A stretch of DNA of 64,000 nt from Sphingomonadales bacterium. GTDB taxonomy: Bacteria; Pseudomonadota; Alphaproteobacteria; Sphingomonadales; Sphingomonadaceae. Both the position numbers and the translations under genes were made by a program. Position 1 is the first letter of the stretch; each line of letters opens with the position of its first letter. Under the pieces are notes generated by a model. That model was not told the origin of the DNA and made no database searches. It saw nothing but the letters and a program-made list of their open reading frames with translations. The stretch is from contig JBBRER010000003.1 of the NCBI GenBank assembly GCA_038202745.1, positions 676 to 64,675 of the forward strand. Direction: 5' to 3'. Shown one piece after another: positions 26,602 through 57,600 of the stretch.

Positions 26602-26621
26602 CGTCGTGTCTTCCTTTGGGC

Positions 26622-30176: not shown

Positions 30177-30184
30177 GGCGGGTC

Positions 30185-30550: not shown

Positions 30551-30603
30551 TACGACCACTTTCTTGTTTGCCCGATGATTATCGCGGTTAGGTAACTTTT
30601 GAA

Positions 30604-35937: not shown

Positions 35938-35942
35938 CCGCG

Positions 35943-38487: not shown

Positions 38488-39396
38488 TCAGCGGACCCCG
38501 AGCACCGAGGCTTCTTGACGGAGGCGATCGGCCCGCGCGGGGTTGGCGGCAAGCGCGGCGGCGAGCGCGGCGGAGGCTTTGTCGCTCTGGCCGAGCACTT
38601 GACGGCTGCGCATCAGCATCACCCAGCCGTCGATGTCGCCGGGCTTGGCGCGCAGCTTGGCCTCGAGCTGCGCGACCATGCCTTCGGCCATCCCCCGCTG
38701 CTGGCTGGGCGGAATCGCGGTCGCCCGCGCGAGGTCTTCCGGGCCGGGACCGGGAATCGCGCGCGCGGCAGTGGCCTGGCGGCCCGGAAGCTTGTCGATC
38801 GCGGCAAGGCGCTGGGCGACATCGATCTTGTTGATCTTGCCGACCTGCTCGACCGTCCGGCGCAAGTCGCTTTCCCACGGCGCGCCGGGCGGGGTGTCGC
38901 CGAGCAGCGCCAGCCAATCGTCGATCGCGCCACGGTGGTCGCCACCAAGATCGCGCTTGACCGCGAGGAAGTAGCGCGCGCGCGGGTCCTTGGGGTCGAG
39001 CGCGATCGCATGCGCGAAAGCATCGGCGGCGGGCGCGGGCATCGGATCGCGCGCGCTTCCCATCACCCGCGCCTCGCCCAGCGCCGACCACGCCTGCGCG
39101 CTTTGCGGCTGCGCCAGCGCGGCCTGCTCGAACGCGCGCGCGGCTTCGCCGTAGCGGTTTTCACCGAACTGGCGCTGGCCGAGCGCGAGCCACGCCGCGC
39201 CGTCGTGCGGATCGGCGGCGACGCGCGCTTCGAGCGCCGCGAGACCGTCGCCGGCGGGGTCGGAGGCGGCAGAAGTGGGCGCCAAAGCCGGGCGATGCGC
39301 GATCTTGTACCCGACCGTCGCCATGGCGATCGCCGCCGCCCCGAACAGCGCCAAAGTTGCGGGCCGCCAGGCGCGCGTCGTCTCTTGTAAGGCCAT
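38488..39396 (-). CDS. ccmI: TPR protein resembling c-type cytochrome biogenesis factor CcmI/CycH
   Basis: One N-terminal TM and TPR repeats (AWLALGQRQFGENRYGEAARAFEQA). The C-terminal segment PSQQRGMAEGMVAQLEAKLRAKPGDIDGWVMLMRSRQVLGQSDKA resembles the CcmI C-terminus as I recall it. Start options are ATG 39396, 39411 and 39417. Confidence 0.6.
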   Translation of the reverse strand: MALQETTRAWRPATLALFGAAAIAMATVGYKIAHRPALAPTSAASDPAGDGLAALEARVAADPHDGAAWLALGQRQFGENRYGEAARAFEQAALAQPQSAQAWSALGEARVMGSARDPMPAPAADAFAHAIALDPKDPRARYFLAVKRDLGGDHRGAIDDWLALLGDTPPGAPWESDLRRTVEQVGKINKIDVAQRLAAIDKLPGRQATAARAIPGPGPEDLARATAIPPSQQRGMAEGMVAQLEAKLRAKPGDIDGWVMLMRSRQVLGQSDKASAALAAALAANPARADRLRQEASVLGVR

Positions 39397-39449
39397 GCAA
39401 TTCCGGTCCATAGTCATGCCCGGACGGGGCGGCAAGGAGGGGGATCAGG

Positions 39450-41900: not shown

Positions 41901-42763
41901 TGGCGAGCGCTCCGCGCAGTGCGACGCAAGCCGAGCGCCGCGTCACCACCGATCACGAGGGATTCCTGCGCCACGGCGGTTTTGTCTGGCTCAAGGTCGC
42001 TGCGCTGCTCAGCCTCGCCGCGCTGATCGGTTACATCGCCAGCGACGTGAAGCCGCGCCCCAGCGGGCACAGTTGGTACGGCTACACGCTGGGCACGATC
42101 GGCGCCGGACTGATCGTGTGGCTGAGCCTGCTCGGGGTGCGCAAGCGCGCGATGACCCGCGGCGGTTGGTCGCTGAAGTCGTGGACCTCGGCGCACGTCT
42201 ATCTGGGGCTCTCGCTGATCGTCGTGGCCACGCTCCACACGGGCTTCCAGTTCGGGTGGAACGTCCACACCCTCGCTTACGCGCTGATGCTGCTGGTGAT
42301 CGCCTCGGGCACATTCGGGATCGTCGCTTATGCCCTGCTCCCCGCCGCGCTCAGCCGCAACCGCGGCGAGATGACCCAGGCGCAGATGATCGACGGGATC
42401 GCCGCGATCGACCGTCAGCTTCACGATGCCGCGCAGCCGCTGGAGCGCGCCTATGCCGACGCGGTGATCGACGCACTGGGGCAGGACTATTTCGCCGGCG
42501 GGCTGATCGCGCGGTTGACGGGCAGGCAGCGCAATGACGCCACCGCGCGCGCGGTGGCGCTGTTCGATGCGGCGCCGGTCGAACCCGCGATCGCCAAAGT
42601 CGAAGCGCTGCTGCGGCGGCGCAAGGCGCAGCTCGACCGGATGCGCCGGCACTTGCGCCTCAAGGCGATGCTCGAAGTGTGGCTTTATGTGCACGTGCCC
42701 GCGACGATCGCGCTGATCGCGGCGCTGGTCGCGCACATCGTCGCCGTGTTCTTCTACTGGTAG
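41900..42763 (+). CDS. five-TM membrane protein with conserved intramembrane histidines (possible b-haem binding)
   Basis: The ATG overlaps the upstream TGA by 1 nt. TMs include SAHVYLGLSLIVVATLHTGF, VHTLAYALMLLVIASG and LYVHVPATIALIAALVAHIV. I recognise no family. Confidence 0.6.
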   Translation: MASAPRSATQAERRVTTDHEGFLRHGGFVWLKVAALLSLAALIGYIASDVKPRPSGHSWYGYTLGTIGAGLIVWLSLLGVRKRAMTRGGWSLKSWTSAHVYLGLSLIVVATLHTGFQFGWNVHTLAYALMLLVIASGTFGIVAYALLPAALSRNRGEMTQAQMIDGIAAIDRQLHDAAQPLERAYADAVIDALGQDYFAGGLIARLTGRQRNDATARAVALFDAAPVEPAIAKVEALLRRRKAQLDRMRRHLRLKAMLEVWLYVHVPATIALIAALVAHIVAVFFYW

Positions 42764-42770
42764 GCGCGGC

Positions 42771-44537
42771 GTGAGCTTTCGCATCCGCACGATCGACACG
42801 CTCGCCGACGGCCGCGAGATCGTTCGCGACCGGACGATCGACAAGATGCTGCTGACGCTCGGCCGCAATGCCGAGAACGACATCCACCTGCCCGATCTCG
42901 CGGTCGATCCCGCGCACGCCACGCTGACGCGGCGCGCCGACGGGCGGATCGACGTCGCGGCGATCGAGAACCTGCGCTTCGAGGTCGATGGGCAGACTGT
43001 CACCGCCACGACGATCGACCCGGCAGTCGGGGTCGAGCTGCGCTTCGGCGGGTATCGCATCCGCGTCGGCGCGGAGGACGGCGCGCCGCTGCTGACGATC
43101 ATGCCGACCGAGACGTTCGGGCAGGCCCAGGGCGCCGATCCCAAGACCAGTTTTACGTTGAAGCGTGCGCTGCCGTCCAAGCGCGTCATGTCGTGGCTGT
43201 TTGCCGCGCTGGTGCTGGGGTTCTTCCTCGGCTGGCCGGTGGCGAGCAACTACCTCCATTCGCGCGATGCGAGGATGGCGGTCCGGGGCGACAAAAGCTG
43301 GACGCCCGGCCCTTTGAGCGCGGCGCATCACGCGCTCGAAGGCGACTGCAAGGCCTGTCACGTCAAGCCGTTCGTAGCGGTGCGCGACGCCAGCTGCCTG
43401 TCGTGCCACAAGGACGTCCACGATCACGCCCCGCCCGCCCAGATGGCGATGGCGCGCGGCATGGGCGGGCTGAGCGAGCGGCTGCTCGGCAGCGTCGCGC
43501 GACTGTTCCACAAACCCGCCGCGGGCGCCTGCGTCGATTGCCACACCGAGCACCAGGGCGCGGGCGCGATGCCGCCGACCCGGCAGAAGTTCTGCGCCGA
43601 TTGCCACGGCGATCTCAAGGGACGGGTAACCGGCGCGAAAATCGGCAACGCGGGCGATTTCGGCTCGCTCCATCCGCAGTTCACCGCGCGGGTAACGACT
43701 GATCCGTTCGCCAGGCAGACCGCGGTGGTCTCGCTCGACGCGCACCCGCAGGATCGCGACGGGCTGACGTTCCCGCACGATGTCCACCTCGCCGCGGCGG
43801 GGGGGGTCGCGCGGATGGCGATCAGCCTCGGCGCGGGGCGCGGCTACGGCGCAGCGCTGACGTGTGCGAACTGCCACCACGCGACCGAGGACGGCGTGCG
43901 CTTCAAGCCGGTGAACATGGAGCGCGATTGCCAGGCCTGCCACAGCCTCGGCTACGACCGCGTCGGCGGCACCGTGCGCACCCTGCGCCACGGCGATATC
44001 GACCAGATGATCGCCGATCTGCGCGCGTCGAACCACGCCGTCGCACCGCTCGCCGCGCCCCGGCGGCGGCCCGGGGCGTTCGGTGCCGAGGGTCCGTATT
44101 ACGCCACCTTCCGCGTCCCCGGCGCAGGGATCGATTCGGTCGCAGGCGCGCTATCTCCCGGCGGCGTCTGCGGCGAATGCCACACTGCGCGCTTCGACGG
44201 GGCCAAGCCCGGGGTCGTGCCGGTGACCCAGCCCGCGCGCTACATGGCGCACGGCTGGTTCGATCACCGCGCCCACGCGCAGGAACCATGCGCGAGCTGC
44301 CACACCGCCAAGTCCTCGCACGTCGCGACCGATCTGCTCCTGCCGGGGATCAAGACCTGCCGCGGCTGTCACCTCGGCGAAGACGCGCACGACGCAAAAG
44401 TCCCGTCGGGCTGCGCGATGTGCCACACCTATCATCCGACCCCGCTCGCCCCGCGCCCTGCTTCCGGCCGCCCGCGCGAGGTTGCGTTTGCCCGTTTTGG
44501 GTCCGGCCCCGCCCGCGCTTTCTGGGTGGGCCGCTAA
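42771..44537 (+). CDS. FHA domain - TM - decahaem c-type cytochrome fusion
   Basis: N-terminal FHA-like segment (LTLGRNAENDIHLPDLAVDPAHATLTRRADGRIDV...FEVDG), the TM MSWLFAALVLGFFLGWPV, then ten CXXCH sites: CKACH, CLSCH, CVDCH, CADCH, CANCH, CQACH, CGECH, CASCH, CRGCH, CAMCH. Confidence 0.8.
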   Translation: MSFRIRTIDTLADGREIVRDRTIDKMLLTLGRNAENDIHLPDLAVDPAHATLTRRADGRIDVAAIENLRFEVDGQTVTATTIDPAVGVELRFGGYRIRVGAEDGAPLLTIMPTETFGQAQGADPKTSFTLKRALPSKRVMSWLFAALVLGFFLGWPVASNYLHSRDARMAVRGDKSWTPGPLSAAHHALEGDCKACHVKPFVAVRDASCLSCHKDVHDHAPPAQMAMARGMGGLSERLLGSVARLFHKPAAGACVDCHTEHQGAGAMPPTRQKFCADCHGDLKGRVTGAKIGNAGDFGSLHPQFTARVTTDPFARQTAVVSLDAHPQDRDGLTFPHDVHLAAAGGVARMAISLGAGRGYGAALTCANCHHATEDGVRFKPVNMERDCQACHSLGYDRVGGTVRTLRHGDIDQMIADLRASNHAVAPLAAPRRRPGAFGAEGPYYATFRVPGAGIDSVAGALSPGGVCGECHTARFDGAKPGVVPVTQPARYMAHGWFDHRAHAQEPCASCHTAKSSHVATDLLLPGIKTCRGCHLGEDAHDAKVPSGCAMCHTYHPTPLAPRPASGRPREVAFARFGSGPARAFWVGR

Positions 44538-44538
44538 C

Positions 44539-45387
44539 ATGCTGATCGCGCAGATCACCGACATCCACATCGGCTTCGATCCGGGCAGTGCGGACGAGTT
44601 CAACATGCAGCGGCTGCGCAGCGTGATCGCGCGGTTGCTCGACGGCCCCAACCGTCCCGATCTGCTGCTGATGAGCGGCGATCTCACCGAATTCGGCGAT
44701 GCAGAGAGTTACGCGCGGCTCTCCGAAGCGGTGGCGGGGCTGCCGTTCCCGGTGCTGGCGATGACCGGCAACCACGATCTTCGCGAGCCGCTGCTCGCCG
44801 CGTTCCCAAAGACGCCGAACGAAGGCGGGTTCGTCCATTACGTCGTCGATTTCCCCGAGCTGCGGCTGGTGGTGCTCGACACGCTCGAAGAGGGGCGCCA
44901 CGGCGGCGCGTTCTGCGAGGCGCGCGCGGCGTGGCTGCGCGCGACGCTCGACGCCGCGCCGGCGCGCCCGACCGTGATCGCGATGCATCACCCGCCGTTT
45001 GAATCCGGGCTCGCCTGGCTCGACGGCAGCGCTGCCGAGCCGTGGATGCGTCGTTTTGCCGAGGCGACCTCGGGCCGCGCGCAGATCAAGGGAATCGTCG
45101 CCGGGCATCTCCACCGCACGATCCACACCGCGTGGAATGGCTTCTCAGTGACGGTGTGCAAATCGACCGCGCCGCTGGTCGCGCTCGACCTCACCCCGAT
45201 CGACGCCGACGTTCCCGATGGCCGCGCGCTGATCACCGACGAGCTCCCCGGCTACGCGCTCCACCGCTGGGACGGAACGCGGCTGATCACGCACTTCGAA
45301 AGCGTCGGAGAAATGCGCGTGCTCGCGCGCTTCGACGAAGGGCTGCTCGATACGGTGCAGATGATCGACCGCGAGCGGCCGAAGTAG
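44539..45387 (+). CDS. class III cyclic-nucleotide phosphodiesterase-like metallophosphoesterase (CpdA-like)
   Basis: ATG 1 nt after the upstream TAA. Calcineurin-fold motifs DIHIG, SGDLTE, TGNHD, AMHHPP and AGHLHR are in canonical order. Confidence 0.75.
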   Translation: MLIAQITDIHIGFDPGSADEFNMQRLRSVIARLLDGPNRPDLLLMSGDLTEFGDAESYARLSEAVAGLPFPVLAMTGNHDLREPLLAAFPKTPNEGGFVHYVVDFPELRLVVLDTLEEGRHGGAFCEARAAWLRATLDAAPARPTVIAMHHPPFESGLAWLDGSAAEPWMRRFAEATSGRAQIKGIVAGHLHRTIHTAWNGFSVTVCKSTAPLVALDLTPIDADVPDGRALITDELPGYALHRWDGTRLITHFESVGEMRVLARFDEGLLDTVQMIDRERPK

Positions 45388-45521: not shown

Positions 45522-48500
45522 CTATTTCGCCCGCCACGCCCCCATGTCCACCTCGTCGCTGACCTTGAACGGGAAGCCCCGTTTGGTCATGAACAGCGCT
45601 TCCATCTCGGGGCGAGTGAACGGGCGCGAGCCCAGGCGGCCGAAGACTGCGATCTGGCCGCCGGTCTCGTCGACCGCGCGGTCGCGGTCGATGCCTTTGG
45701 ACAACGCCAGTGCGCGCGACGGGGTCTTGGCCCAGGCGATCAGCTCGGGCTTGGGCGCGGGGCTGTAGCCGTAGAAATTGGGCTGGCTGGCGGGCGAGGT
45801 CAGCTGGATCACCTTGAGCCCGTTGCGCCCGTCCGCCACGTAAGCGAACGCGCTGGCGTTGGTCGATCCGACGATCACGTCCTGCGCGTCGTTCATCTGC
45901 CCGCCGAACGTCTCGCGCAAATAGACCGTGGGCGCGCGCGGGCGCGTGACGTTGACGATCACCAGCCCGTCCGCGCCCGCCGCGACGTAAGCATACGTCC
46001 GTGCGAGATAGACCCGGCGCGCGTCGGCGAGCGGCACCGCGCCTTCGGGCACCGGTTGCGGATGCCTGAGATCGGTGACGTCGAACAGCTTGAGCCCGCC
46101 GCTATCGGTCACCCACAAGTAGCGGAACTGGACCGCGCTCGCGCGCGCGCCGGTAAGCGGCTGGACCGAAGCGAGCTTGGGATGGAGCGGATCGTGCAGG
46201 TCGACCGTCACCAGCCCGGCGTCGGCGGCGATGTAGGCGATCTCGCCCGCGAGCACGATGTGCCGCGCGCCATTGAGCACGCCGTTTTCGTTCCACGTCA
46301 CCGCGCGCTTGAGATGGTTGTTGGCGAAATCGCCGTCGGCGAGCGTTTCGATATTGACGAGGATCAGCCCCTCGGTCGCATCGGTTACCGCGGCGTAGCT
46401 GTAGATCGGCAGGAACGCCTGCTCCTGGTTGATCTGACGCATGATCTTGGTGTTGCGCAGCGGGTTGATCGGCTGCCCGGTCGGCAGCGCCATGCAGGTC
46501 GCATCGGTGGTGCCGACGTGGGTGTCCTGGCCCAGCGGCGAGAACGGCGCCGAGACGATCGGCTGCGATACGCCCTTGTTGGCGATTGAGGCGACATCGT
46601 AAACGCGGAAGCCGCCTTTCCCTTCGGCGACGTAAAGGTATTCGCCGCGCAATTGCAGGCATCGGGCCGCATCGCTGGTGCCGTGGGTGACGTTGCGGAA
46701 TTCCTCGGCCGGATCGGTTTCGCCCGATAGCCCCGACGACAGCGTCTTGCCGCGGACCCAGTTCTTGAGCTCGCGATGGTTCTGATCGACGTGGAGCTTG
46801 TAGTAATCGGGGTAGGCGTATTCCTGCAGGTACGACCCGATCACCGCTTGCGGTTCGCTCCATTCCGTCACGCGCACCGCCTCGATACCGCCCGCGAGGC
46901 CGGTCCACGCGTTGAGCCCGACGAAGTTGACGTAGTTCGAACCGAGCAACAGCGTCTGCGCCAGAATCGCGTTGTTGTCCTCGTCCCTGGACAAGTGGCA
47001 ATCGCTGCAGGTCTTCGTCTCCTCGGTCCGCACGGTGTGCGGGAAATGCGGCGCGAACGCCTGGCTCGAGAACCCGATCGCGCTAACCGGCGGCTGCTGG
47101 ATGTAAATCCGCTCGCGGTTGAGATTGGTCGAGGACAGCACCAGCGCGCTGGTCGATCGGACGGGGGCGACCTCCGCGCCCTTGGTGGTCATGTGCTTGC
47201 CCAGCTGGAACATGTCGTCGCGCGCGACTTGCGGGTTGTAGCTCGCGAAATTGCGCGTTTCCTCGCCCTCGTAACGATGCGAAGTGGTTCGCCAGTTGGC
47301 TTCGATCGGCAAGTGGCAGCCGCCGCAGCTCGTCGTCCAGCTGAGGTGGCAGGTGTAGCACGCGATCTTGGTGATATCGTGCGCGCGGTCGGACAGCTTG
47401 ATCCCCGGGCCGAACGCGAAACTGCCGTCCTGCGCGCCCGACTTGCTCATCAGTTTGGCCCGCGCCGCCTTGGCGTTGAAATAAGGCGAGGCCGGATCGA
47501 CGCTGTCCTTGACCAGGTGAATTTGCCATTCGAGCTTCGGATCGACGAGCGAGCGCTGCGTCAGCGTCCGCCGCCCGGCGTTGTCGAAGCCCCATTCGAA
47601 GCGTCGCTTGCCGTCGGGGTTGCGCAGCAGCGACAAGTCGTTGCCCTTGGGCGGCGCGGCCGGGCCCGAGGTCAGCAGCGTCGGGTAGGCGTCGGGAGTG
47701 CCGTGGCAATCCTTGCACCCGATCTCGATGGCGTTGGCGACCTCGCCGTAGATCAGCCCGTTGCCGTGGCTGTCCTGCGCAAAGTGGCAATCGGCGCACT
47801 GCAGGCCCTTTTCAGCGTGGATGTCCATCAGGTGGACCGCCTTGCCGGGGTTGACGCCGGGGGGCACGAACTTGCCCTCGCCCGCCTTGCGCCATTTCTC
47901 GGGGTCATCGGGGCTGACGATATGCGCGGTATCGGTCCCCCAGGTGGCCATGTTGCCGCCTTCGTCGAGCAGGTTGCCGGCGCGGTCGCGCTTGAACACC
48001 CCGCGGAAGTTCCAGCCGTGGCCGTGATAGTCGGCGAACTGGGTGTCCTTGAGCGTCGGGTTTAGATCGTAGACGTCGCGCAGGAAATCGAGATCGCCCC
48101 ACAGCCCGCGCGGGCTCGCGCCTTCGGGATTGCGATCCTCGATGTCGCGGACTTCGTGCGCGGTCGGATAGGCCTGCTGCTTGGGCCACATGCTCGGCGC
48201 GTCTGATTCGTAGTCCCACATCGTGTAGCCGAGGTAGCTGTTCAGGAAGATGTTGGGCTGGTGCATGTGGCAGTTCATGCACTGCGCGGTGGGGATCGCG
48301 CGGGTGAAGACGTGCTGGAGCGGGTGGCCCTTTTCCTTGACCGGCGGACCTTCGCGCCCGTCCACCAAAGCGCCGTGCTGCATCGCCCCGGCGATCGTCG
48401 GATCGGCGGTGATCGACTGCCCGTCGCGCCCGTATTGCGCGTAAGTCAGGCTGTCCCGCGGCTCGCGGTCGTTGGCGTAGATCACGTGGCACCCGGTGCA

Positions 48501-49511
48501 GCCCGAACTGCGATAATCGCCGGGCTGGTCGTTGGTCCCCATGAACCACATGTAGGGATCGTTGAGCCGGGTCTTGTGCATGTTGAGCAGCGGGATCGCA
48601 ACGCGCAGCCCGGTGCCGGGGCCGCGGTTCGACTGCTTGAGATCGGGCCGGCCCGGCTCCTCGAGCCGCTGGATCTGGCCCGAAAGATTGGGCAGGCCGA
48701 TTTCGGCAAACGTCGAATTGATCGTCCGCCCGCCGCGCTCGAACACGCGGAACACGTCGCCCGGCGGGGTCACCTGCCAGGTCGGCAGCGGATAGAGCTC
48801 GGCGAGCGCGCCGCGCGCTTCCTGCCGGGCGGTGAGCTTGCCCGGCGGATTGCCCGGCGAGACGACTTTAGCGGGCTTGCCGTCACGCGTGTAGGCCTCG
48901 CCGAAAATGTAGTTTTTGAACGGGACGATGCCGTTGTTGTACGCCGCCCCCCCCATGAACATCGCGCCCGAGGCCATCAGCGAGCGTTCGGCGGCTTCGA
49001 CGGTGGCAAGGTGGCAGGCGCCGCACGATTCGCGCGCGATGCGGTAGTCGCCCGGGTTGACGAAGCGCACGAACTCGGGCGCCTCGCGGTTGAGCAGGGT
49101 GTAGCCGCGCTCGGGGTTGGCGGCGCTGGGGTAGTGCCAGGCGGCCGGGTAGCGCGGCAGGACGTGGGCCTTTTCCATCGCGGCGACGTTGAACGGATCG
49201 GTGTAGCCGAGTTCGGGCCGGCCCCGCGCCGCAGGGGAGGCCGCATCGCCGCCGTGGCAATCGGTGCAACCTAAATGAACCGCCTCGCTCACGTGCATCG
49301 TGGCGGCGTCCGAGGCGGTGTGGCACGAGATGCATCCCGCCGATTTGGCCCCGGCTTGGGCGAACGTCTGGTTGCGCGGTGCATCGGGCGCGGTAACGTA
49401 AGCGCGCGCGACCGGCTTTTCCTCCTCGCTTGCGCGTCCCGCTGCGAGCGGCAGGATCGCCGCCGCTACCAGCACCATCAGCCAGCGCAGCAAAGGCCGC
49501 CGCCCGCGCAT
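45522..49511 (-). CDS. 1329-aa secreted decahaem c-type cytochrome fused to C-terminal LVIVD-type beta-propeller repeats
   Basis: ATG 49511 (TGATG junction with the upstream gene). Signal peptide MRGRRPLLRWLMVLVAAAILPLAAG. Ten CXXCH sites: CISCH, CTDCH, CGACH, CTGCH, CMNCH, CADCH, CKDCH, CYTCH, CGGCH, CSDCH. The C-terminal roughly 450 aa carry repeats GFRVYDV, GLILVNI, GLVTVDL, GLKLFDV, GLVIVNV and GLKVIQL. Confidence 0.8.
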   Translation of the reverse strand: MRGRRPLLRWLMVLVAAAILPLAAGRASEEEKPVARAYVTAPDAPRNQTFAQAGAKSAGCISCHTASDAATMHVSEAVHLGCTDCHGGDAASPAARGRPELGYTDPFNVAAMEKAHVLPRYPAAWHYPSAANPERGYTLLNREAPEFVRFVNPGDYRIARESCGACHLATVEAAERSLMASGAMFMGGAAYNNGIVPFKNYIFGEAYTRDGKPAKVVSPGNPPGKLTARQEARGALAELYPLPTWQVTPPGDVFRVFERGGRTINSTFAEIGLPNLSGQIQRLEEPGRPDLKQSNRGPGTGLRVAIPLLNMHKTRLNDPYMWFMGTNDQPGDYRSSGCTGCHVIYANDREPRDSLTYAQYGRDGQSITADPTIAGAMQHGALVDGREGPPVKEKGHPLQHVFTRAIPTAQCMNCHMHQPNIFLNSYLGYTMWDYESDAPSMWPKQQAYPTAHEVRDIEDRNPEGASPRGLWGDLDFLRDVYDLNPTLKDTQFADYHGHGWNFRGVFKRDRAGNLLDEGGNMATWGTDTAHIVSPDDPEKWRKAGEGKFVPPGVNPGKAVHLMDIHAEKGLQCADCHFAQDSHGNGLIYGEVANAIEIGCKDCHGTPDAYPTLLTSGPAAPPKGNDLSLLRNPDGKRRFEWGFDNAGRRTLTQRSLVDPKLEWQIHLVKDSVDPASPYFNAKAARAKLMSKSGAQDGSFAFGPGIKLSDRAHDITKIACYTCHLSWTTSCGGCHLPIEANWRTTSHRYEGEETRNFASYNPQVARDDMFQLGKHMTTKGAEVAPVRSTSALVLSSTNLNRERIYIQQPPVSAIGFSSQAFAPHFPHTVRTEETKTCSDCHLSRDEDNNAILAQTLLLGSNYVNFVGLNAWTGLAGGIEAVRVTEWSEPQAVIGSYLQEYAYPDYYKLHVDQNHRELKNWVRGKTLSSGLSGETDPAEEFRNVTHGTSDAARCLQLRGEYLYVAEGKGGFRVYDVASIANKGVSQPIVSAPFSPLGQDTHVGTTDATCMALPTGQPINPLRNTKIMRQINQEQAFLPIYSYAAVTDATEGLILVNIETLADGDFANNHLKRAVTWNENGVLNGARHIVLAGEIAYIAADAGLVTVDLHDPLHPKLASVQPLTGARASAVQFRYLWVTDSGGLKLFDVTDLRHPQPVPEGAVPLADARRVYLARTYAYVAAGADGLVIVNVTRPRAPTVYLRETFGGQMNDAQDVIVGSTNASAFAYVADGRNGLKVIQLTSPASQPNFYGYSPAPKPELIAWAKTPSRALALSKGIDRDRAVDETGGQIAVFGRLGSRPFTRPEMEALFMTKRGFPFKVSDEVDMGAWRAK

Positions 49512-51406
49512 CAGTAGGCGACCGTCAGGTTGGCGAGGATCGAGACGTACGCCCGGTCGCGCGGCTGGTTGGTGAACAAGTCCTTGAACCCCGCCCCCGG
49601 CAGCAGCGCCGCCGCCGACAGCCGCGCGACGATGTTCTGCGTCGCGCGCGGACGCCAGATCGCCGAAGTCGATAGGTCCCACCCGATCGATTTGGGGATC
49701 GAACCTTCATTGCGCAGCGTCTGGAGCACGATCGTATCGTCGAACCACAAGTGGTTGGCGTTGGCCGAGACGCGCAACTGCGGCGTGAGGTCGAAATCGC
49801 CGCCCGCGCCGATAAGCACCGTGCCCGGATTGTTGAAGTTCGACTGCCCTTGTTCCTTCGACGAACGCAGAGAATTGAGCACGCCGTTGCGCCCATTGAT
49901 CGAAATCACCCGGCCGCCGCCCGCGAATGGGATCGTCTGTCTGATCCAGTAACTCGTGTCCGCGCCCGCGAAGACCGGGTTTTCGAACACCGCGTCGAAC
50001 CCGCCTTCGGTGTTGTCGTACGGATCGGAATCGCCGGTCGCGTAAAGCCCCGACAGCCGAAAGCGCATCCAGTCCTTGTCGTACGACAGTTCCGCCGCGG
50101 CGAACCCCGCGCGCACTTTGGCCTTGCGCCCGGTGAAGAAGCTGTTCCGGTCGCTGCCGAACGCGCCGTAAACCGATCCGGTCAGGTTGAGCCGCCCGAT
50201 GTGTCCGTCGGTGTTGTAGCCGACGTAAAACACGTCGTAATCGCGCCCGCGCAGCGTGCCGAGCAGCGCCGGGCGCACCGGAAAACCGTTGTCGTCGATC
50301 TCGATCTCGTTGCCCTCGCGGTTGCGGTTGTAAACGAGCGTAACCTGCCCGGTCAGCCCCGGGCGAAGAAAATCCTGGCGATAGGCGTTGGCGATGAACA
50401 CCCAGTCGTCACGCGGGCGTACGGTCAAGTTGTTGAGCCCGCTATTGGTGTCCTTCTCGAGCCGCCAGAACGCAGCGAGATTGTATTGAAAGCGGTTATT
50501 GTCGCGATTGCCGAACAGCCGCACGCCGAGCTGTTCGTCGTTGAACAGGAACCCCCGGAAATCGGCTTGAAACGGCTGGATTCCGATGCGCAGCGAATCG
50601 AAATCGTAGCGGTCGGAGACGTTGCGCAAATGGCGGTCGACGAACAGTTCCTGCACGCCGAGGAAATCGTCGGTGCGGCTCGTGCCCTTGCTCGGTTGGA
50701 CGAACAGCACGCGCCGCTCGGGCACGCGGACATGGTTGACGTTGAACGCCAGCGTCACCTTGTATTCGATCTCGGGCGGCTTGAACGCGGTGCTGCCCTT
50801 GAGCAGCGAGGCGCTGGCGATCACCGTCTGCGACAGCACGTAGCTAGCGTCCTTGCCGAACACGTCGATGCTGTGCGGGCGCTGCGTGGTCTGCACCCCC
50901 ACGGGAATCGGGAACGTACGCGGCTCGATTACCGTATCGCTGACGAGGCCGAGGTTGAGGAACCAGTCATCGCCGTGAAGGAATCCCGGACGCTTGCCCT
51001 CGGGGAGCGGAATGTCGCCCTTGAGCACGTTCTGGTGATAGGGATCGCGGCGCGAATGGCAGACCTCGCGCATCGCCTTGAACACATCGAACAGCGACTG
51101 GTCTGCGCCTTTGGGACACAGCCCGGTGAGGATGCGCCAGCGATCGGGAACGGGGAACGCCTGATCGACGGGGAACGCTTCGGGGGGCGGAGCGCGCACC
51201 GCGCCTTCGTTTGTCTGGCGGGCCTTGTCGGGAAGATTGGGATTGTAGCCGGGCTTGCGCCGCCCCTCGATCACGCCGGAATCGACGTCGGGCGGCGTGG
51301 TCTCGTCCGCGTCGGGCGTCGCGGTGGCGACCGGCTCGGGCGGCGGCGCGGCGGGCGGCGGCTCGGCGCCGAGCATCAGCAGCATCAAGGCCAGCCCCGC
51401 GATCAC
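49511..51406 (-). CDS. large outer-membrane beta-barrel protein (porin-like), family unknown
   Basis: Alternating amphipathic strands run throughout and the C-terminus is aromatic (LANLTVAY). The N-terminus is (M)IAGLALMLLMLGA followed by a Pro-rich linker. The start is uncertain (GTG 51406, ATG 51385 or 51376). The stop forms a TGATG junction with the decahaem gene. Confidence 0.65.
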   Translation of the reverse strand: MIAGLALMLLMLGAEPPPAAPPPEPVATATPDADETTPPDVDSGVIEGRRKPGYNPNLPDKARQTNEGAVRAPPPEAFPVDQAFPVPDRWRILTGLCPKGADQSLFDVFKAMREVCHSRRDPYHQNVLKGDIPLPEGKRPGFLHGDDWFLNLGLVSDTVIEPRTFPIPVGVQTTQRPHSIDVFGKDASYVLSQTVIASASLLKGSTAFKPPEIEYKVTLAFNVNHVRVPERRVLFVQPSKGTSRTDDFLGVQELFVDRHLRNVSDRYDFDSLRIGIQPFQADFRGFLFNDEQLGVRLFGNRDNNRFQYNLAAFWRLEKDTNSGLNNLTVRPRDDWVFIANAYRQDFLRPGLTGQVTLVYNRNREGNEIEIDDNGFPVRPALLGTLRGRDYDVFYVGYNTDGHIGRLNLTGSVYGAFGSDRNSFFTGRKAKVRAGFAAAELSYDKDWMRFRLSGLYATGDSDPYDNTEGGFDAVFENPVFAGADTSYWIRQTIPFAGGGRVISINGRNGVLNSLRSSKEQGQSNFNNPGTVLIGAGGDFDLTPQLRVSANANHLWFDDTIVLQTLRNEGSIPKSIGWDLSTSAIWRPRATQNIVARLSAAALLPGAGFKDLFTNQPRDRAYVSILANLTVAY

Positions 51407-51407
51407 C

Positions 51408-53336
51408 CTACAAACCCTGGCAGACGTTTTGCTGGCTTGTGTCGAGGAACGGCGCGAACGGACAGTTGATGAAGCGCAGCCGCACTCCGCCCGCGCCAAA
51501 CGGCACCACCACGGTGTCCGAGCGGATCGCGAGCGGAGCGTTGCCGAACCCGCCGAGCGCCGCCCCGGCGTTGTTCAGCCCGAGGAAGCCGATCATGTCG
51601 TCCTGATCGATCCCGTCGCCCGAGACGCCGATCCCGCCGATCAGCGTGCTCCCGCGGTAGATCGGCACCGAGCCGGGGAATATCTGGATGCCGTTGGCCA
51701 CCCGAGCCTGCGCAGAACAGCGCCGCGGCGCATCGCTCGCGCTCGCGCCGGTGCTGAACTGCAGCCCCTGGACGATATTGCCCGCGATCAGCGCGGACTG
51801 CAGCCCGGTCGAGAACGGGTTGAACTGCGTGATCGGGCGCGACAGCGGACCGTTGGGCGTATTGAGCTGCCCATCGGGAAAGTAGGGCCGTGAGAGGTTG
51901 CCGCCCGCGCGGTCGGAAAACGCGATTTTGCCGGTGAGCGCGCTCGGATCGGCGAGGAACGTGCGCAGTGCGGGCACGAAATGGCGCACATCGGCGCTGG
52001 GATCGGCGGACAGCTCGGCGCCCGCGTTAGGGTGCGAAAAGAACGCCGCAGTACGCGCCTTCTGGAGCGAGACGTCGGTGCCGAAGATCGGCGCGTCGGG
52101 CGCGCGGACGATGCCGAGGATCTGGCCGCGCGTATCGACCACCGAGATCGACACTTGCGCGCGGCTGTCGAGCGGCTGACGGATTTGCCCTCGCGCCCGG
52201 GTCATGATCGTGAACGCCTGGACCAGCGTTTCGCGCACTTCGGCTGCGCTGAGCGGCTGCGCGATATCGCCCGCGTCGGTGCCCGCGCGAACCGGAAAGC
52301 GGTTGTTGCCCGCGCCGTCGGACAGCACGAACGCGTCGGGGTTGGGGAACTCGGCGGCGCGCGAGGGGCGGATACCAGAGGTTTCGGTGCCGTAAGCGGT
52401 CCCGGCGATCACCGCGCCGCCGGGATAATAGCCACGATACGGGACCAGCGCGCCGAGCGCGGGGACAGTCGCGGCAAAGCTCGCGCCCGCGAGCGAGGTC
52501 AGCGCCGGGTAGTCTACATCGGAGAAACGCAGCTGGGTACCGTCGACATAAACCCGGTCGGCGCGGATCGCGGTCGGTGCTTCGAAGCCGACGGTCCCGG
52601 CGAGCGCAATTTTCTCGTCGCGGTCGGAATCGATGTCGAGCACGTCGGGATCGAAAGCGTACTGCCCGTCGGCCAGAACCCCGACCCCGCCGACGAGCAC
52701 GCCGTTCTTGTAGAGCGGGAACCCGCCGGGATCGGCGGCGAGCCCGAGCGGCGAGCGCTGCGGCCCCATCGGGCCGTCGGCGGCGCGGGTCGAAAGGTCA
52801 GAGCACGGCAGCTGACTGAACTGGACCCCGAACAACGGCCCGCTTTCGAGCCCCGGGGTCGAGGCCGCGGGGGGAAAGTGCTGCTGGACGATCTGGCTCG
52901 CGGTGCGCGAGGAGAACGCGTTGCCCGCGCTCGACAGGTAAGCCCCGGTGATCGCCTTGGCGATCGCGGCGGCCTCGGCGGGGACCACCGCGCCCTGGAT
53001 GTCCAGATCGGCGCCGCCCGGCGCGTGAGACACCAGCGCGGTCGCGGGCGCGCCGGTCATTTTGAGCACCGCGAGCACATTGCCGACCCGGTCGGTCACC
53101 GCGATTACTGCGGGCGCGCTGTCGGCGCGCGCCTGCGCGGCGGCTTCGGCGAGGACTTTCTGGACGTCGATCACGCTCAACGATTCGGCGGCGGGGACCG
53201 CCAAGACGCCGCCCACGGGTGGCGGCGTTGGCGTCGGCGTCGTGCCTCCGGTCGCGCCGCCCCCGCTTGTTCCGCCGCCCCCGCACGCGACGAGCGCGAA
53301 GCACGCCAGCGCGGCTATCCCCCGCCTGCCCCGCAT
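51408..53336 (-). CDS. lipoprotein with two GlcG/HbpS-like (DUF336, haem-binding/degrading-like) domains
   Basis: Lipobox FALVAC followed by a Gly/Thr/Pro linker. Domain 1 reads AVIAVTDRVGNVLAV...AAAIAKAITGAY. Domain 2 reads SISVVDTRGQILGIV...SLQKARTAAFF...IGGIGVSGDGIDQDD. Confidence 0.65.
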   Translation of the reverse strand: MRGRRGIAALACFALVACGGGGTSGGGATGGTTPTPTPPPVGGVLAVPAAESLSVIDVQKVLAEAAAQARADSAPAVIAVTDRVGNVLAVLKMTGAPATALVSHAPGGADLDIQGAVVPAEAAAIAKAITGAYLSSAGNAFSSRTASQIVQQHFPPAASTPGLESGPLFGVQFSQLPCSDLSTRAADGPMGPQRSPLGLAADPGGFPLYKNGVLVGGVGVLADGQYAFDPDVLDIDSDRDEKIALAGTVGFEAPTAIRADRVYVDGTQLRFSDVDYPALTSLAGASFAATVPALGALVPYRGYYPGGAVIAGTAYGTETSGIRPSRAAEFPNPDAFVLSDGAGNNRFPVRAGTDAGDIAQPLSAAEVRETLVQAFTIMTRARGQIRQPLDSRAQVSISVVDTRGQILGIVRAPDAPIFGTDVSLQKARTAAFFSHPNAGAELSADPSADVRHFVPALRTFLADPSALTGKIAFSDRAGGNLSRPYFPDGQLNTPNGPLSRPITQFNPFSTGLQSALIAGNIVQGLQFSTGASASDAPRRCSAQARVANGIQIFPGSVPIYRGSTLIGGIGVSGDGIDQDDMIGFLGLNNAGAALGGFGNAPLAIRSDTVVVPFGAGGVRLRFINCPFAPFLDTSQQNVCQGL

Positions 53337-54679
53337 CAGCGCAGCGACCCGATCGCGCGCGCGGCTTCGCCCAGCGCGGCGCGGAAGCCGGCGGGATCGT
53401 AAGTGTTGGGGTTCTTCACCGCGGCATAGGCGCGGTCGATATTGCCGCGGATCCCCGCCGCCGCGCCGACCGTCACCCGACCTTCGCGGACCAGCGCGCC
53501 CAGCAGAGTATCGACCGCCATCACCGCCTGAACCGAACCTTCATAATCGGTGAACCGCGCCGCGGTCGTCCGCTCGGCGATCCGCGCGACCACGGTGAAC
53601 GCGGTGTCGGGCGAATAGCCGTGGTCGAGCCGTCCGGCGAGTGCGTTCGCTGCGGCATTGAGCTTGACCGCCGCTGCCATCGCTTCACCGCGTCCCGCGC
53701 CCATCGCGCCGTGGAAGGCGCGACTGGCGGACGCGAACCCCGCAGCGGATTCAGGCGCCAGCGTTTTTGCGACCGCATCGAGCAGGATCGCATTCTCGTC
53801 GTTGAACGGCGGCGTCGCGAACGGGATCGGGCGCCCCGGATTGGTCTCGAACGTCAGCTTGCGCGCGGGGCCGTCGGTGATCTGGCGGTGGCACGAATGG
53901 CAATCGAAGAAATAGAATTCGGGGAACAGCCCTTGCGAACCCAGCTGCGGGCGCGTGAACAGCGCGGTCTGGCGCGCGACCGCTTCGGCCTGCCCGACCG
54001 CCCACAGCCGTACGCTGTCGGTCCTGGGCTTGCGCGCCGTGTAGCGCGCGTCCTCGGTCCAGTGCTGCTGAAGCGCGGAAAACAGATCGAGCTCGAACGC
54101 AACGCGCGGATGTCCCGCGGCCATCATCTTGTGCGTCACGAACTGCCCGGGCGCGGCGCTGCCGAAGTGGCAATCGAGGCACACCGAGGCGCGGCGGCGG
54201 GCGTCGACGAGGTCGGTCATCCCGTTACGGACGTTGGCGGCGTGCGATCCGGCCAGCGCGTAGTGGCTCGCGAGCCAGCCCGACGCCGCTCCGTGGCAGC
54301 TTTCGCAGCCGACCCCGTCGCTTATCTGGAACTGCGACCCGTGCGCGCTGCCGACGGTGGCGTGGCAGCCAAGGCACTGCGGCGCGGAAGTCGCGCTGCC
54401 GAGCCCGAGCGTCGCTGCGATCTGCCGACCGCGCGCTCCGCCGAGCACCGCGTAAGCGCGGCTATGCGCACCCGCCTGGCTCGACGGGTCCTGCCAGTGG
54501 AGGATTTCGTCCTGGCGGACATGCGCGCCGTTGCCTTCGGCGCGGCCGTGGCAGGTCGATCCCGCGCAGCTGGCGACGCCTTCGAACGTGCCCGCCGCGC
54601 CCGGCCCCGCGAAGGCCAGCGCCAGCAGCAGCGCCAGCGCCGCCCAAACTCCCGCGCTTCGCACTTCCCCCAACCGCAT
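53336..54679 (-). CDS. periplasmic multihaem c-type cytochrome (4 CXXCH + 1 CX4CH)
   Basis: ATG 54679 is 2 nt after the tpsA stop (an alternative GTG is at 54706). It has a signal peptide. Haem sites are CAGSTCH, CLGCH, CESCH, CLDCH and CHSCH. The C-terminal half is helical and has no haem sites. Confidence 0.75.
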   Translation of the reverse strand: MRLGEVRSAGVWAALALLLALAFAGPGAAGTFEGVASCAGSTCHGRAEGNGAHVRQDEILHWQDPSSQAGAHSRAYAVLGGARGRQIAATLGLGSATSAPQCLGCHATVGSAHGSQFQISDGVGCESCHGAASGWLASHYALAGSHAANVRNGMTDLVDARRRASVCLDCHFGSAAPGQFVTHKMMAAGHPRVAFELDLFSALQQHWTEDARYTARKPRTDSVRLWAVGQAEAVARQTALFTRPQLGSQGLFPEFYFFDCHSCHRQITDGPARKLTFETNPGRPIPFATPPFNDENAILLDAVAKTLAPESAAGFASASRAFHGAMGAGRGEAMAAAVKLNAAANALAGRLDHGYSPDTAFTVVARIAERTTAARFTDYEGSVQAVMAVDTLLGALVREGRVTVGAAAGIRGNIDRAYAAVKNPNTYDPAGFRAALGEAARAIGSLR

Positions 54680-54681: not shown

Positions 54682-57600
54682 TCACCCGCCGTCGTTGTCG
54701 GGACACTCCCCGCCGGAGCCATCCTTAGCGCGGTTGCAGCGCTCCTGCCACAAGTCGTCGTTGCCGACGCCGGTCACCGGCTCGTCGATCAGCGGGGGCG
54801 AATCGAACGGCTCGAGCGCGCGGTATTGGAGCAGCGGGAGGAGCAGCGCTAGCGAACCCTCGCCTTGGCCGGTAAGCGAGCCCGAGATCGTCGACGTGCC
54901 CGGTCCGACGCGCATCGCGAGCACACAATCGAGCCCGATGATGCAGCCGTTGATCGTCGAGAAGCGGTCGAACTGCCCGGTGCTGAGCGCAGGTCGGCCA
55001 TTGATCAGAATCGTACCCGCGGTGTCGAGCCCGTAGTGCGGCACCCCGCCGGCGAACGTCATCCCGTTGATGACGATCTGCGTCGCCGCGCTGGTGGTCG
55101 TGATCGCGATGCCGTTCGCGGAGAACCCGCGGCGATCGGCGTAGGGCGCGCCCGTCCCACTGTTCTGGATGAACAAGCCCCCAGTCGCAGTCAGGTTGAT
55201 TTGCCCGGCCTGGAGCCAGCCGCCGGCGATCGGAGCCACGTCGTTCACCGCCAGCCGCGCGTTGATCGCGTCGGTCGACTGGCCCGCGATGTCGGTGAGC
55301 GCCGCTTGGCTCGCCACCGCGATGATCCCGCCGACGAGGTCGAGCGTCCCGCCAAGCGCGCCCGCAGCGTCGCGCATGACGATGCTGCCGGTGTCCGCGA
55401 CAACGTCGATCCGTGACGGGTCGATCGAGAAACGGTCGGCGGCGCTACTTGTTGTCAGCCGCACCGCGCCGGTGACCGCAACCCGCCCCGGGGTGAGTAG
55501 CTTGAACTCGCCCCCAGTCCCGATGTTGGCGTTCGCGCCATAGCTCAGTGCGAGTTGTCCGACGATGAAATCGGCGACGGTCGCGGGGTTGACGGTGACC
55601 GGCACCGTGATCGTGATCCGCTGGTCGGCAAACAGCTGCAAGGCTTCGCTCGCCGACAGGCTCCACGCCCCCGCTTGCGTCGCGCCGCCGATGAAGGTGC
55701 GGCCCGTCGAAATGCCGTTGGTCAGCACGATCGTCTGGGTCGTCCCGCGCAATCCGACCCGCGCGGTCGCGCCCAGCACGATGTCGCTCGACGTGAGCGC
55801 GATCGTCCGGCCCAGAATGAGGCTGCCTGCGGTGAACGCGCCGCCCGCGCGCGCCGTCAGCGCGTTGATAGCGGTCACCGGGGCGTCGGCGGTGATCGCG
55901 CCGCCCGCGACCAGCGTGACCGAATCACCCGAGACCGCACCCGTCGCATGAAGTGTGCCGCCGGTGCTGGTCAGCGTGGTCGCGCCGGTCGCGCTCGCGC
56001 CGGCGATATCGAGATTGCCCGCGGTTCGCACCGACAGCGCGCCCGCGCTCGCGGTCGCGCTGGTTACAGTCAGCGCGCCCGGCGAAACCAGATCGACGCT
56101 GCGCCCTTGCGCGGTCACCGCGCCAACCGAAGTCAGGTTCGCAACGCCGACCGCGCCATTCACCGCGCGCAGCAGCGTCGTCCCACCCGAAGCGAGTTGC
56201 GCCAGAGTGACCCCCCCGGGTGCGATGATCTGCGCGTTTCCGTTAGCGCTCAGCGGAGTGGTGGCGACCACCGTCCCGCTGGCCGATGTCACCGCCAGCG
56301 CACCGTTTGAAGCGACCGAGCCACCCAGCACGACGTTGCCGTTCGCGCTCAGCGTAATCCCCACGCCGCTGAGCGCGCCCGCGGTCGTGAGTGCGCCGCC
56401 GGTCGATGTCACTCCTAGCGCACCGCTCGCAGCGACCGAGCCGCCCAGCACGACGTTCCCGTTCGCGCTGAGCGTCACCCCCGCACCGCTGAGCGGGCCG
56501 GCGGTCGTGAGCGCACCATTGGTCGATGTCACGCCCAACGCACCGTTGGAAGCGACCGAACCGCCCAGCACGACATTGCCGTTCGCGCTCAGCGTAATCC
56601 CCGCGCCGCTGACGGCGCCGGTCGTCGTGAGCGCCCCGCCGGTGCTGGTCAGCGCCACTGTGCCTGTCGCGCCCGCGGTGCCCGTCGTCAGGTTGCCCGC
56701 GGTGGTGACCGCGAGATTGCCCGCCGTCGCTTGGGCCGAGGTGAACGTCAGCGCGCCGGGCGAAGTCACCGACGCGCCGCGCCCAAGCAGCGTCACCGCT
56801 CCGGGCGAAGTCAGCGCGTTCACGGTGACATTGCCGTTCGTCGCGCGCAGCAGCGTGGTCCCGCCCGACTGGACGCCCGCAAGGTTCATGCCCTGCGCGG
56901 CATCGAGGCTGACGTTCCCAACCGCGCTGACCGTCCCCGGCGCGCTGAACGTTCCGCCCGCGGTCACGCTGAGCGCCCCGAGCGAGGCCAGCGCCGCGTC
57001 CGACTGGACGTTGCCCGCGGCGGTATAGGCTATCCCGACCCCGTGGACCGCGCCGGTGTTGTGGATCGCGCCGGCGGTGCTGGCCAGCGCGACCGACCCG
57101 GTCGCATCGACGGTGGTCAGATCGAGGTTGCCCGCGGTGCGGATCGACAAGTTGCCCGCGGTCGCGTCGGCGTCGGCGAAGCTGAGCGCGCCGAGCGAAT
57201 TGAGATCGACCGAAGTGCCAAGCACCGTAACGAGCCCAGTCGAACGCAAGTCGTTGCTCACGCTCACCGCCCCGCCCGGCGCGCGCAGCAGCGTGGTCCC
57301 GCCCGAAACGAGATCGGTCAGCGAAATCCCGGTGCCGGCGACGATGCTGACATTGCCCGCGCTCGTCAGCCGGCCGCTGCCCGCAAGATTACGGCCGATG
57401 GTGAAATCGATCGGACCCGCCACATCGAGGCTTGCGCCCGGAGCGATCGTCAGCGCCGCGGCGCGCGGAGTGACCAGCATGAACTGCCCGCCCACTTTGA
57501 GCGGCGCACCAGCGATCGACCCGGTAAACCCATTGCCCGCCGCGCCGGTCGCGCCGTCGCCGCGCACGCTCAGGTCGCCCGCGATGGCCAGCCCGGCTCC

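Follow-up and report, generated by a model that had tools for sequence, protein, structure and literature searches.

What does a block of genes for two multihaem cytochromes, a lipoprotein and a beta-barrel do in a sphingomonad, and does it specify an electron conduit through the outer membrane of the Mtr/Pcc type, as a preliminary description of the locus proposed? The block lies in a 64,000-nucleotide stretch of contig JBBRER010000003.1 (assembly GCA_038202745.1, positions 676 to 64,675) from a Sphingomonadales bacterium, a stretch that is here called the window and has a G+C content of about 68%. Four consecutive minus-strand genes, designated A, B, C and D, stand out in it by their third-position G+C. 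The translational coupling claimed for their three junctions agrees with the sequence: the stop of A and the start of B share a TGATG at 53338-53334, a TAG, one G and a GTG lie between B and C at 51410-51404, and a further TGATG joins C and D at 49513-49509. The composition given for the set (a 4+1-haem cytochrome, a lipoprotein with tandem HbpS/GlcG domains, a 631-residue barrel and a 1329-residue LVIVD decahaem protein) is likewise borne out by motifs, Pfam matches and AlphaFold2 modelling. The four genes are:

53336-54679, minus strand: A, periplasmic pentahaem cytochrome, c554-like (signal peptide, four CxxCH motifs and one Cx4CH, Pfam Cytochrome_C554 at E 8e-9)
51408-53336, minus strand: B, lipoprotein of the outer membrane with a pair of HbpS/GlcG-like domains (lipobox LVAC, then G; Pfam HbpS-like, E 2.9e-22)
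49511-51406, minus strand: C, beta-barrel of about 18 strands (AlphaFold2 model, Foldseek)
45522-49511, minus strand: D, 1329-residue decahaem cytochrome fused to an LVIVD beta-propeller (ten CxxCH motifs, type-I signal peptide, Pfam LVIVD at E 2e-15)

On balance, gene content and conservation lean towards a gated electron-export chain encoded by seven to eight conserved genes, fed by reduced nicotinamide nucleotides (NAD(P)H) and leading to an outer-membrane complex, in which these four genes would form the periplasmic and outer-membrane half and a convergent operon at 39450-45387 the other half.

In 80 of 80 related genome loci the genes follow one another as A-B-C-D as far as the contig permits, a retention far above what chance would give. 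Species-representative genomes yielded the barrel in at least 518 stretches, and all counts of genome loci given here rest on the 80 that were kept, whose titles almost all name a Sphingomonadales genus or simply Alphaproteobacteria or Pseudomonadota. In 79 of these the barrel is flanked by B and D, and A is present in 68, the shortfalls being contig ends; the operon of phosphodiesterase, decahaem cytochrome, cytochrome b and flavoprotein adjoins the block in 43-48 loci (about 47 for the operon overall, 48 for the phosphodiesterase). When D was used as the query, 7995 proteins matched at E<=1e-5. The 120 best of these are 74-81% identical to it; those with a source name come from Novosphingobium, Sphingobium, Sphingomonas, Croceibacterium, Sphingomonadales or Sphingomonadaceae or unclassified Alphaproteobacteria, and their annotation goes no further than 'LVIVD repeat-containing protein' or 'multiheme c-type cytochrome'. 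The module, which had been thought unexpected in a sphingomonad background, is common there according to both searches, and the system appears to be widespread, extending to hundreds of aerobic bacterial species.

The same association is seen at greater distance. Ten contexts with DNA were examined; the LVIVD decahaem gene lies next to the barrel in nine of them, and the HbpS lipoprotein gene accompanies both in eight. In other bacterial classes, where barrel identity is about 50%, B, C and D remain linked. In Steroidobacter flavus and in metagenome contigs, the input genes, the HbpS lipoprotein, the barrel and the LVIVD decahaem occur together, mostly co-directional and often with a c554-like gene. 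Three loci (L081, L084 and L086) carry the genes for a flavin and iron-sulfur (FeS) protein with cyclic nucleotide monophosphate (cNMP) domains, cytochrome b, FHA-decahaem, HbpS lipoprotein, barrel and LVIVD decahaem as one co-directional operon, with the c554-like gene after the operon in L081 and L084 and divergently upstream of it in L086; PP2C and FHA-FHA genes come after it too in L081 and L084. The input genes of L085 and L088 share the locus but do not form one run, and L090, which is cut inside D, has no HbpS gene. A cyclase gene stands directly after D in L082, and a CHASE2 cyclase gene about 5 kb upstream in L085. The haem counts of 10, 10 and 4+1 (Cx4CH included) are kept across the distant homologues. 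The functional unit is thus a set of seven core genes plus cNMP accessories, and positions 45522-54679, to which the preliminary description was confined, cover half of it; the convergent operon as part of the same system, a TpsA-like gene abutting A and the commonness of the module in sphingomonads had all been overlooked. The convergent operon comprises:

39450-41900, plus strand: input protein of 816 residues, with a TrxR-like flavin adenine dinucleotide (FAD) and NAD(P)H domain, two cNMP-binding domains and a multi-cluster 4Fe-4S domain (Pfam)
41900-42763, plus strand: membrane cytochrome b of 287 residues (Pfam Ni_hydr_CYTB, 30.4 bits against a cut-off of 30.1)
42771-44537, plus strand: FHA-anchored decahaem cytochrome of 588 residues (ten CxxCH motifs, membrane helix at residues 139-159, Pfam FHA at 21.7 bits against a cut-off of 20.7)
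44539-45387, plus strand: cyclic-nucleotide phosphodiesterase, CpdA/SpdA-like (reading frame open from 44482, likely ATG at 44539; Pfam Metallophos at E 3e-15)

The input protein is cytoplasmic by prediction: it begins with a GxGxxG Rossmann motif and has no signal peptide. It also has no CxxC. Its Pfam matches are Pyr_redox_3 (E 5e-30), cNMP_binding in two stretches (E 7e-34) and Fer4 families including the Fer4_11 type, and it is 42-51% identical to its distant homologues. In cytochrome b (34-42% identity to distant homologues), two helices each carry an H-x13-H pair whose histidines are invariant in six homologues, and these paired helices point to two haems b stacked across the inner membrane; the alignment scan of this protein took in only close, sphingomonad-like relatives, and no match to Pfam Ferric_reduct was found. 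The anchored decahaem protein runs from a cytoplasmic FHA domain (residues 1-140 were searched) through a single membrane helix to a periplasmic ten-haem part. It is 27-29% identical to distant homologues, and its 71 invariant positions out of 588 are almost only haem cysteines and histidines, with 11 further histidines; every haem-motif cysteine and the candidate ligand histidines are among them, as they are in A. It is this inner-membrane protein, not D, that gives a match at threshold to the MtrC/MtrF domain. The phosphodiesterase matches the NCBIfam models SpdA (E 1e-40) and CpdA (E 2e-22), both under their cut-offs. Neither an intrinsic terminator nor a sigma-70 promoter consensus was found between the two convergent operons.

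Conservation is distributed unevenly over the cytochromes and their partners. A is 33-35% identical to its distant homologues, with 91 of 447 positions invariant, among them all ten haem-motif cysteines and 12 histidines; its fifth haem motif, CAGSTCH, is of the Cx4CH form and is kept in the distant homologues. A is probably a relay wire. B scores 79.5 bits against a cut-off of 25 on the HbpS/GlcG family (Pfam PF03928), over three stretches that amount to two domains, and its sequence matches in the PDB are EfgA, PduO-C and a putative extracellular haem-binding protein. A Gly/Thr/Pro linker comes after its lipobox, which distant homologues retain; across classes B is 49-54% identical, with 206 of 642 positions invariant. 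These include one histidine and one methionine only and are enriched in arginine (20 of 37, p 0.004); a motif scan of B returned no CxxCH. D is the most conserved part of the system, at 58-63% identity across classes and 510 of 1329 positions invariant, and is likely to be the terminal, catalytic or docking subunit. Given the low conservation of A and the anchored decahaem protein and the high conservation of D, B and C, we read the former two as wires and the latter three as the parts that would carry specificity.

Where D resides bears directly on its role. The preliminary description called it secreted, which is unproven: its signal peptide is a plain one, there is no lipobox, and genes for secretion, those of type II included, neither travel with D nor lie nearby. 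A periplasmic location, docked at the outer membrane, is therefore more likely than secretion. The possibility that D belongs to a known reductase family finds no support at the level of sequence. By sequence, NrfA and the octahaem reductases (ONR, OTR and HAO) were rejected as relatives, D having no CxxCK and scoring 18.8 bits on the NrfA model against a cut-off of 595; a single-sequence search of the PDB gave as its sole match a 36-residue NrfA-like stretch around one haem (E 0.012), and a profile search of the PDB found nothing. Local matches of D to the ExtM, ExtN and ExtO models are confined to residues 562-611, at 61.7, 26.1 and 25.9 bits against cut-offs of 800, 200 and 200. The earlier statement that none of the proteins resembles MtrABC and their kin holds, since scores fall far under the curated cut-offs for the MtrABC, DmsE, Ext and NrfA families, and so does the denial of any likeness to Cyc2, the barrel C being devoid of CxxCH and of invariant cysteines.

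The barrel is the part on which the proposed conduit depends. C has 631 residues from its GTG start, ends in LTVAY and gives no Pfam or NCBIfam match, even at E<=10. The AlphaFold2 model (predicted local distance difference test, pLDDT, 61.6; predicted template modelling score 0.61) shows about 18 long strands joined by short periplasmic turns, and a highly conserved loop of about 70 residues (458-529) lies outside the modelled part; the N-terminal region is conserved too. Foldseek ranks AlgE first (E 1.5e-11), followed by OprD/Occ channels and MOMP (range to 1e-6), with template modelling scores (TM-scores) of 0.35-0.51 over the AlgE/OprD structural matches; for the AlgE fold these are 0.36-0.51 at root-mean-square deviations of 10-12 A, on a model of moderate confidence. 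No MtrB is found among the top 50 Foldseek matches, which are AlgE, Occ and general porins, and the Pfam family MtrB_PioB (PF11854) gives no match at E<=10. Across classes C is 48-57% identical, with 183 of 632 positions invariant; there is no invariant cysteine or methionine among them and only two invariant histidines, and arginine is enriched (22 of 52, p 0.02). A role of C as a cytochrome sheath of the Mtr type is accordingly not supported by strand number, best folds or family. What stands of the Mtr/Pcc-type reading is a conserved unit of multihaem cytochromes, an outer-membrane barrel and a lipoprotein; what does not is family membership and a barrel of the size and type of the Mtr sheath.

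A further question is whether C is a substrate porin unrelated to cytochromes. Membership of the AlgE family by sequence (Pfam PF13372) was rejected, with no match at E<=10 for C or for its homologue P0166, which one source labels 'Alginate export domain-containing protein', and no genes for polysaccharide synthesis or export (AlgK, AlgX and others) are present in the window or in the ten sampled contexts. AlgE is the best structural match of a barrel that has no Pfam match and that is tied to the LVIVD decahaem in nine of ten distant contexts, the tenth being without cytochromes. With a profile of the barrel, 1607 representatives (clustered at 50%) were retrieved, of which 526 reach E<=1e-30, and the names attached to barrel relatives include Steroidobacter, Povalibacter, Betaproteobacteria and a 'Ca. 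Sulfotelmatobacter' metagenome-assembled genome. The context without cytochromes is that of P0300 (L087, 10001-11635), a distant family member of 544 residues on a contig full of small open reading frames that also carries genes for a DNA polymerase III beta subunit, an HNH nuclease and type IV CRISPR proteins (Csf1, Csf3 and RAMP). This contig looks like a phage or plasmid carrying a family barrel, and its lack of cytochromes indicates that the barrel family is wider than the cytochrome system.

In the export chain that we favour, the cytoplasmic flavoprotein would accept electrons from NAD(P)H on its FAD and its own 4Fe-4S domain would hand them to the membrane cytochrome b, whose two haems b on the H-x13-H helices would carry them over the inner membrane. 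The anchored decahaem protein and the soluble pentahaem A would then relay them through the periplasm to D, whose place of action would be the outer membrane, with barrel C and the HbpS-like lipoprotein B as its partners. Control would be post-translational, with a cyclic nucleotide made by the CHASE2 cyclase binding the two cNMP domains of the flavoprotein and the linked phosphodiesterase removing it, and the FHA domain of the anchored decahaem protein could add control by phospho-threonine, with PP2C taking part in some lineages. The direction in which electrons flow, the gating, the part played by the barrel and the outer-membrane docking of D are our inferences. Outward flow is suggested by the inner end being a low-potential module of the NAD(P)H type, and outward movement of electrons is favoured by the membrane potential. 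The 25 haems c of the three cytochromes are about enough to span the width of the periplasm, which points to a terminal site at the outer membrane, and a path directed to the outer membrane becomes more plausible since the system also comprises a matching input module in the inner membrane. Finally, an 18-strand, arginine-rich and loop-bearing barrel, taken with a D that lacks a lipobox, makes a docked reductase preferable to a threaded conduit. In this preferred version, D would be a terminal reductase docked under C, and C a specific, arginine-rich channel admitting an external and probably anionic or small substrate to D, with no cytochrome threaded through it.

Several observations weigh against this export chain. 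A soluble periplasmic enzyme has no obvious need for a 15-haem relay, and the arginine enrichment in C and B is statistically modest. The model of C is of moderate confidence (pLDDT 61.6) and does not include the conserved long loop or the N-terminal 90 residues, and the AlphaFold2 model of residues 27-900 of D, built on a 44-sequence alignment, reaches a pLDDT of only 31.3, so that a catalytic site in D is suggested by conservation only; the location of D and B is that given by predicted signal sequences. Two distant loci, L082 (3829-5331) and L088 (11099-12646), encode a shorter cNMP-FeS protein of about 500 residues without the flavin domain, and a partner flavoprotein was not located in either. 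Furthermore, in a metagenome sample of 34 loci anchored on the cytochrome b gene, D, C and B are not within 10 kb in 20 (e.g. L092, L155, L158 and L160); the two halves can hence lie apart, and the input module may in some cases work with other partners or occur by itself. The most far-reaching form of the proposal is a quinone-bypassing machine of a new class, gated by cNMP and phospho-threonine, that takes NAD(P)H electrons to a dedicated outer-membrane catalytic complex (decahaem-propeller enzyme, specific barrel and HbpS-like lipoprotein) for a cell-surface reaction new for these hosts, such as oxyanion or metal reduction or the regulated production of reactive oxygen species (ROS). We put this forward as a tentative and rather doubtful extension.

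The closest description found is that of the ptdABCDEFG operon, in one preprint, which reports it from sequence in the marine Alphaproteobacteria UBA11136 and others, across several phyla (bioRxiv 10.1101/2023.11.21.568154). Its parts are an FAD/NAD(P) oxidoreductase, a cNMP-binding 4Fe-4S protein, a ferric-reductase-like membrane protein, a decahaem and a tetrahaem cytochrome, a porin and a pentahaem cytochrome with a beta-sandwich, and its function 'remains completely unknown' to its authors (bioRxiv 10.1101/2023.11.21.568154). By architecture only, the input half of ptd corresponds part for part to 39450-44537, with its first two parts fused here, and the flavin-less cNMP-FeS protein of L082 and L088 agrees with the separation of PtdC from PtdE. 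Also by architecture only, its porin and 'tetrahaem' resemble barrel C and A, the ptd count being of CxxCH motifs alone and A having four CxxCH and one Cx4CH. Both clusters are spread over several phyla. They differ at the outer end, where ptd has the beta-sandwich pentahaem and the present system the 1329-residue decahaem with its LVIVD propeller; an HbpS-like lipoprotein, an FHA domain, a phosphodiesterase and a CHASE2 cyclase are not reported for ptd, and the listed ptd hosts are marine or saline, none of them Sphingomonadales. No other study of the cluster was found in the library consulted on LVIVD with cytochromes, HbpS with multihaem proteins or sphingomonads with multihaem proteins.

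With MtrCAB, PioAB and MtoAB, the system shares the joint encoding of multihaem cytochromes and an outer-membrane barrel, and a path from periplasm to outer membrane. However, C is not of the MtrB_PioB family and has about 18 strands instead of 26; A reaches 17.2 bits on the DmsE/MtrA model (TIGR03508) against a cut-off of 192.2, and D does not match it. Nor is there a lipoprotein cytochrome of the MtrC/OmcA type, and input here would come from a cytoplasmic NAD(P)H flavoprotein and not, as in MtrCAB, from the quinol pool through CymA. The Ext/Pcc clusters of Geobacter (ExtHIJKL and ExtMNOPQS) are similar in combining a barrel, cytochromes, a non-cytochrome lipoprotein (in Ext, the rhodanese ExtH) and an associated FeS/cytochrome b module, but no rhodanese or Ext family member is present here and the matches of D to ExtM, ExtN and ExtO span about 50 residues around one haem pair, at 26-62 bits against cut-offs of 200-800. 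AlgE and OprD/Occ, of 18 strands, are the best structural matches to C, which is rich in conserved arginines, yet C has no Pfam match, no alginate or polysaccharide genes lie nearby and the barrel keeps its tie to the LVIVD decahaem. Lastly, the NADPH oxidase (NOX), FRE and MsrQ proteins show the same order of carriers, from NAD(P)H through flavin to two stacked haems b, and histidine pairs 13 residues apart, inside the 12-14 spacing that marks the NOX and ferric-reductase domain. They differ in that the flavin here resides on a soluble protein of its own, which also bears 4Fe-4S clusters and cNMP domains, in that cytochrome b does not match Ferric_reduct, and in that 25 haems c lie downstream in place of a direct reduction of O2 or Fe(III).

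These comparisons frame the other explanations of the locus. In a true porin-cytochrome conduit, the inside of barrel C would be occupied by A, by a portion of D or by an HbpS domain of B loaded with haem, and electrons would move to or from insoluble Fe(III)/Mn(IV), humics or electrodes. The gene content (a periplasmic multihaem protein, a barrel and a lipoprotein) parallels that of the Mtr/Pcc/Ext clusters, the full inner-membrane feed and the 25 haems c suggest a path reaching the outer membrane, haem binders exist among HbpS-family proteins, and in Cyc2 a small barrel functions with just one haem. The related ptd cluster has likewise been read as a putative porin-cytochrome complex (bioRxiv 10.1101/2023.11.21.568154). 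We nonetheless consider a conduit rather unlikely, on account of a barrel of about 18 strands whose best folds are AlgE and OprD and which has no MtrB_PioB match at E<=10, and of the scarcity of invariant ligands, C having no cysteine or methionine and two histidines and B one histidine and one methionine. D, moreover, has no lipobox and no type II secretion genes nearby, it is conserved like an enzyme and unlike fast-evolving extracellular cytochromes, and one relative of the barrel (P0300) occurs without any cytochrome.

A second possibility is a regulated extracellular or periplasmic valve that reduces O2 and produces ROS, or that balances redox, by the logic of an NADPH oxidase: a cNMP signal would let NAD(P)H electrons be dumped on O2 or another abundant oxidant. 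The layout of NAD(P)H, flavin and two haems b on H-x13-H helices is that of NOX and ferric reductases, and gating would be tight and post-translational, through cNMP domains, cyclase, phosphodiesterase and FHA/PP2C. The named carriers are Novosphingobium, Sphingobium, Sphingomonas, Erythrobacter and Steroidobacter, genera of mainly aerobic heterotrophs. In addition, the equivalent protein has been called ferric-reductase-like (bioRxiv 10.1101/2023.11.21.568154). On the other hand, O2 reduction would call for neither 25 haems c nor a propeller, barrel or lipoprotein, cytochrome b matches only Ni_hydr_CYTB, and that at the borderline, and not Ferric_reduct, and the idea is pure inference; we regard it as improbable. 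Least probable of all would be a reversed flow, with D oxidising an external or periplasmic donor (Fe(II), Mn(II), reduced sulfur or nitrogen species, or selenium) and electrons passing inward. Multihaem chains are reversible in principle, Croceibacterium selenioxidans is among the carriers, and D is weakly and locally similar to NrfA around one haem (E 0.012). The inner end is, however, a flavoprotein of the NAD(P)H type with low-potential FeS clusters and without a link to an oxidase or bc1 complex, the movement of electrons inward to NAD(P)+ is opposed by both potential and membrane voltage, and the cluster contains no energy-coupling subunit, all of which makes electron uptake very hard to credit. 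Of these explanations, we retain the gated export of electrons to an outer-membrane complex as the preferred one.

The remainder of the window holds genes that accompany the two halves of the system to varying extents:

38488-39435, minus strand: CcmI/CycH-like TPR protein, divergent from the input gene (Pfam TPR_CcmH_CycH at E 2e-15)
54682-60990, minus strand: TpsA-like giant secreted repeat protein of 2102 residues, Gly/Ala/Thr-rich (weak NCBIfam matches to FxxPxG and NPXG adhesin N-terminal domains)
60987-62759, minus strand: TpsB transporter, ShlB/FhaC-type (Pfam ShlB at E 3e-18, POTRA_2)
62787-63530, minus strand: conserved exported protein of 247 residues accompanying the cyclase (by linkage)
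63511-64000, minus strand: class III nucleotide cyclase, C-terminal part, cut by the window end (Pfam Guanylate_cyc at E 7e-5)

The CcmI/CycH-like gene is found beside the system in 10 of the 80 genome loci, in 22 of the 34 metagenome loci and in the distant locus L085, and its product is a probable dedicated apocytochrome chaperone. The full-length homologue of the cyclase in L035 combines CHASE2 and Guanylate_cyc, an architecture that is also seen in L085, and CHASE2 cyclases recur in loci of the Erythrobacter type. Together with the 247-residue exported protein, which gives no Pfam match, the cyclase is encoded directly upstream of A in 14 of the 80 loci, these being other than the TpsA loci. 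In the window, the TpsA-like gene ends 2 nucleotides ahead of the ATG of A, and its start overlaps the tpsB stop in an ATGA; it is a variable insert between the cyclase pair and A, and the TpsA/TpsB pair was rejected as a core part because it is present in 19 of the 80 loci only. Close to one half or the other of the cytochrome system, a TpsA-like gene is found in these 19 genome loci and in 9 of the 34 metagenome loci.

Further away, an open reading frame at 35859-36479 on the plus strand matches the Pycsar effector transmembrane domain PycTM (E 1e-23) and overlaps the end of a glutamate dehydrogenase gene (34582-35937). With no cyclase adjacent, it may be an orphan effector-like gene or a chance frame, and it was rejected as the source of the cNMP link because it lies beside the glutamate dehydrogenase gene and not beside a cyclase. 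The distant locus L082 likewise has a glutamate dehydrogenase gene immediately upstream of the system. Between the PycTM-like frame and the CcmI/CycH-like gene lies a gene for a TonB-dependent receptor (36476 to about 38460, minus strand), and a gene of this kind flanks the system in L084 as well. A chemotaxis-type cluster occupies 25222-33389 on the minus strand and comprises a methyl-accepting chemotaxis protein, a GGDEF-EAL protein, CheR, CheB, a CheY-like receiver and a CheA-like kinase.

What emerges here is a widespread, uncharacterised and, by its domains, putatively second-messenger-gated chain of flavin, FeS clusters, haems b and 25 haems c over the cell envelope, of a kind barely described before outside the ptd cluster. 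If the export chain proposed here is correct, many common aerobic heterotrophs of soil, freshwater and the sea, including sphingomonads, relatives of Erythrobacter and Steroidobacter, would move NAD(P)H reducing power to the outer membrane under tight regulation. They would thereby possess a redox activity so far unrecognised in presumed plain aerobes, with the reduction of metals, oxyanions or humics, the transformation of pollutants or the extracellular production of ROS as possible outcomes. The system would also be a case in which a second messenger gates electron export directly, and it would tie the marine ptd cluster to a much wider family, one whose carriers include the cultivable and genetically tractable Novosphingobium and Sphingobium.

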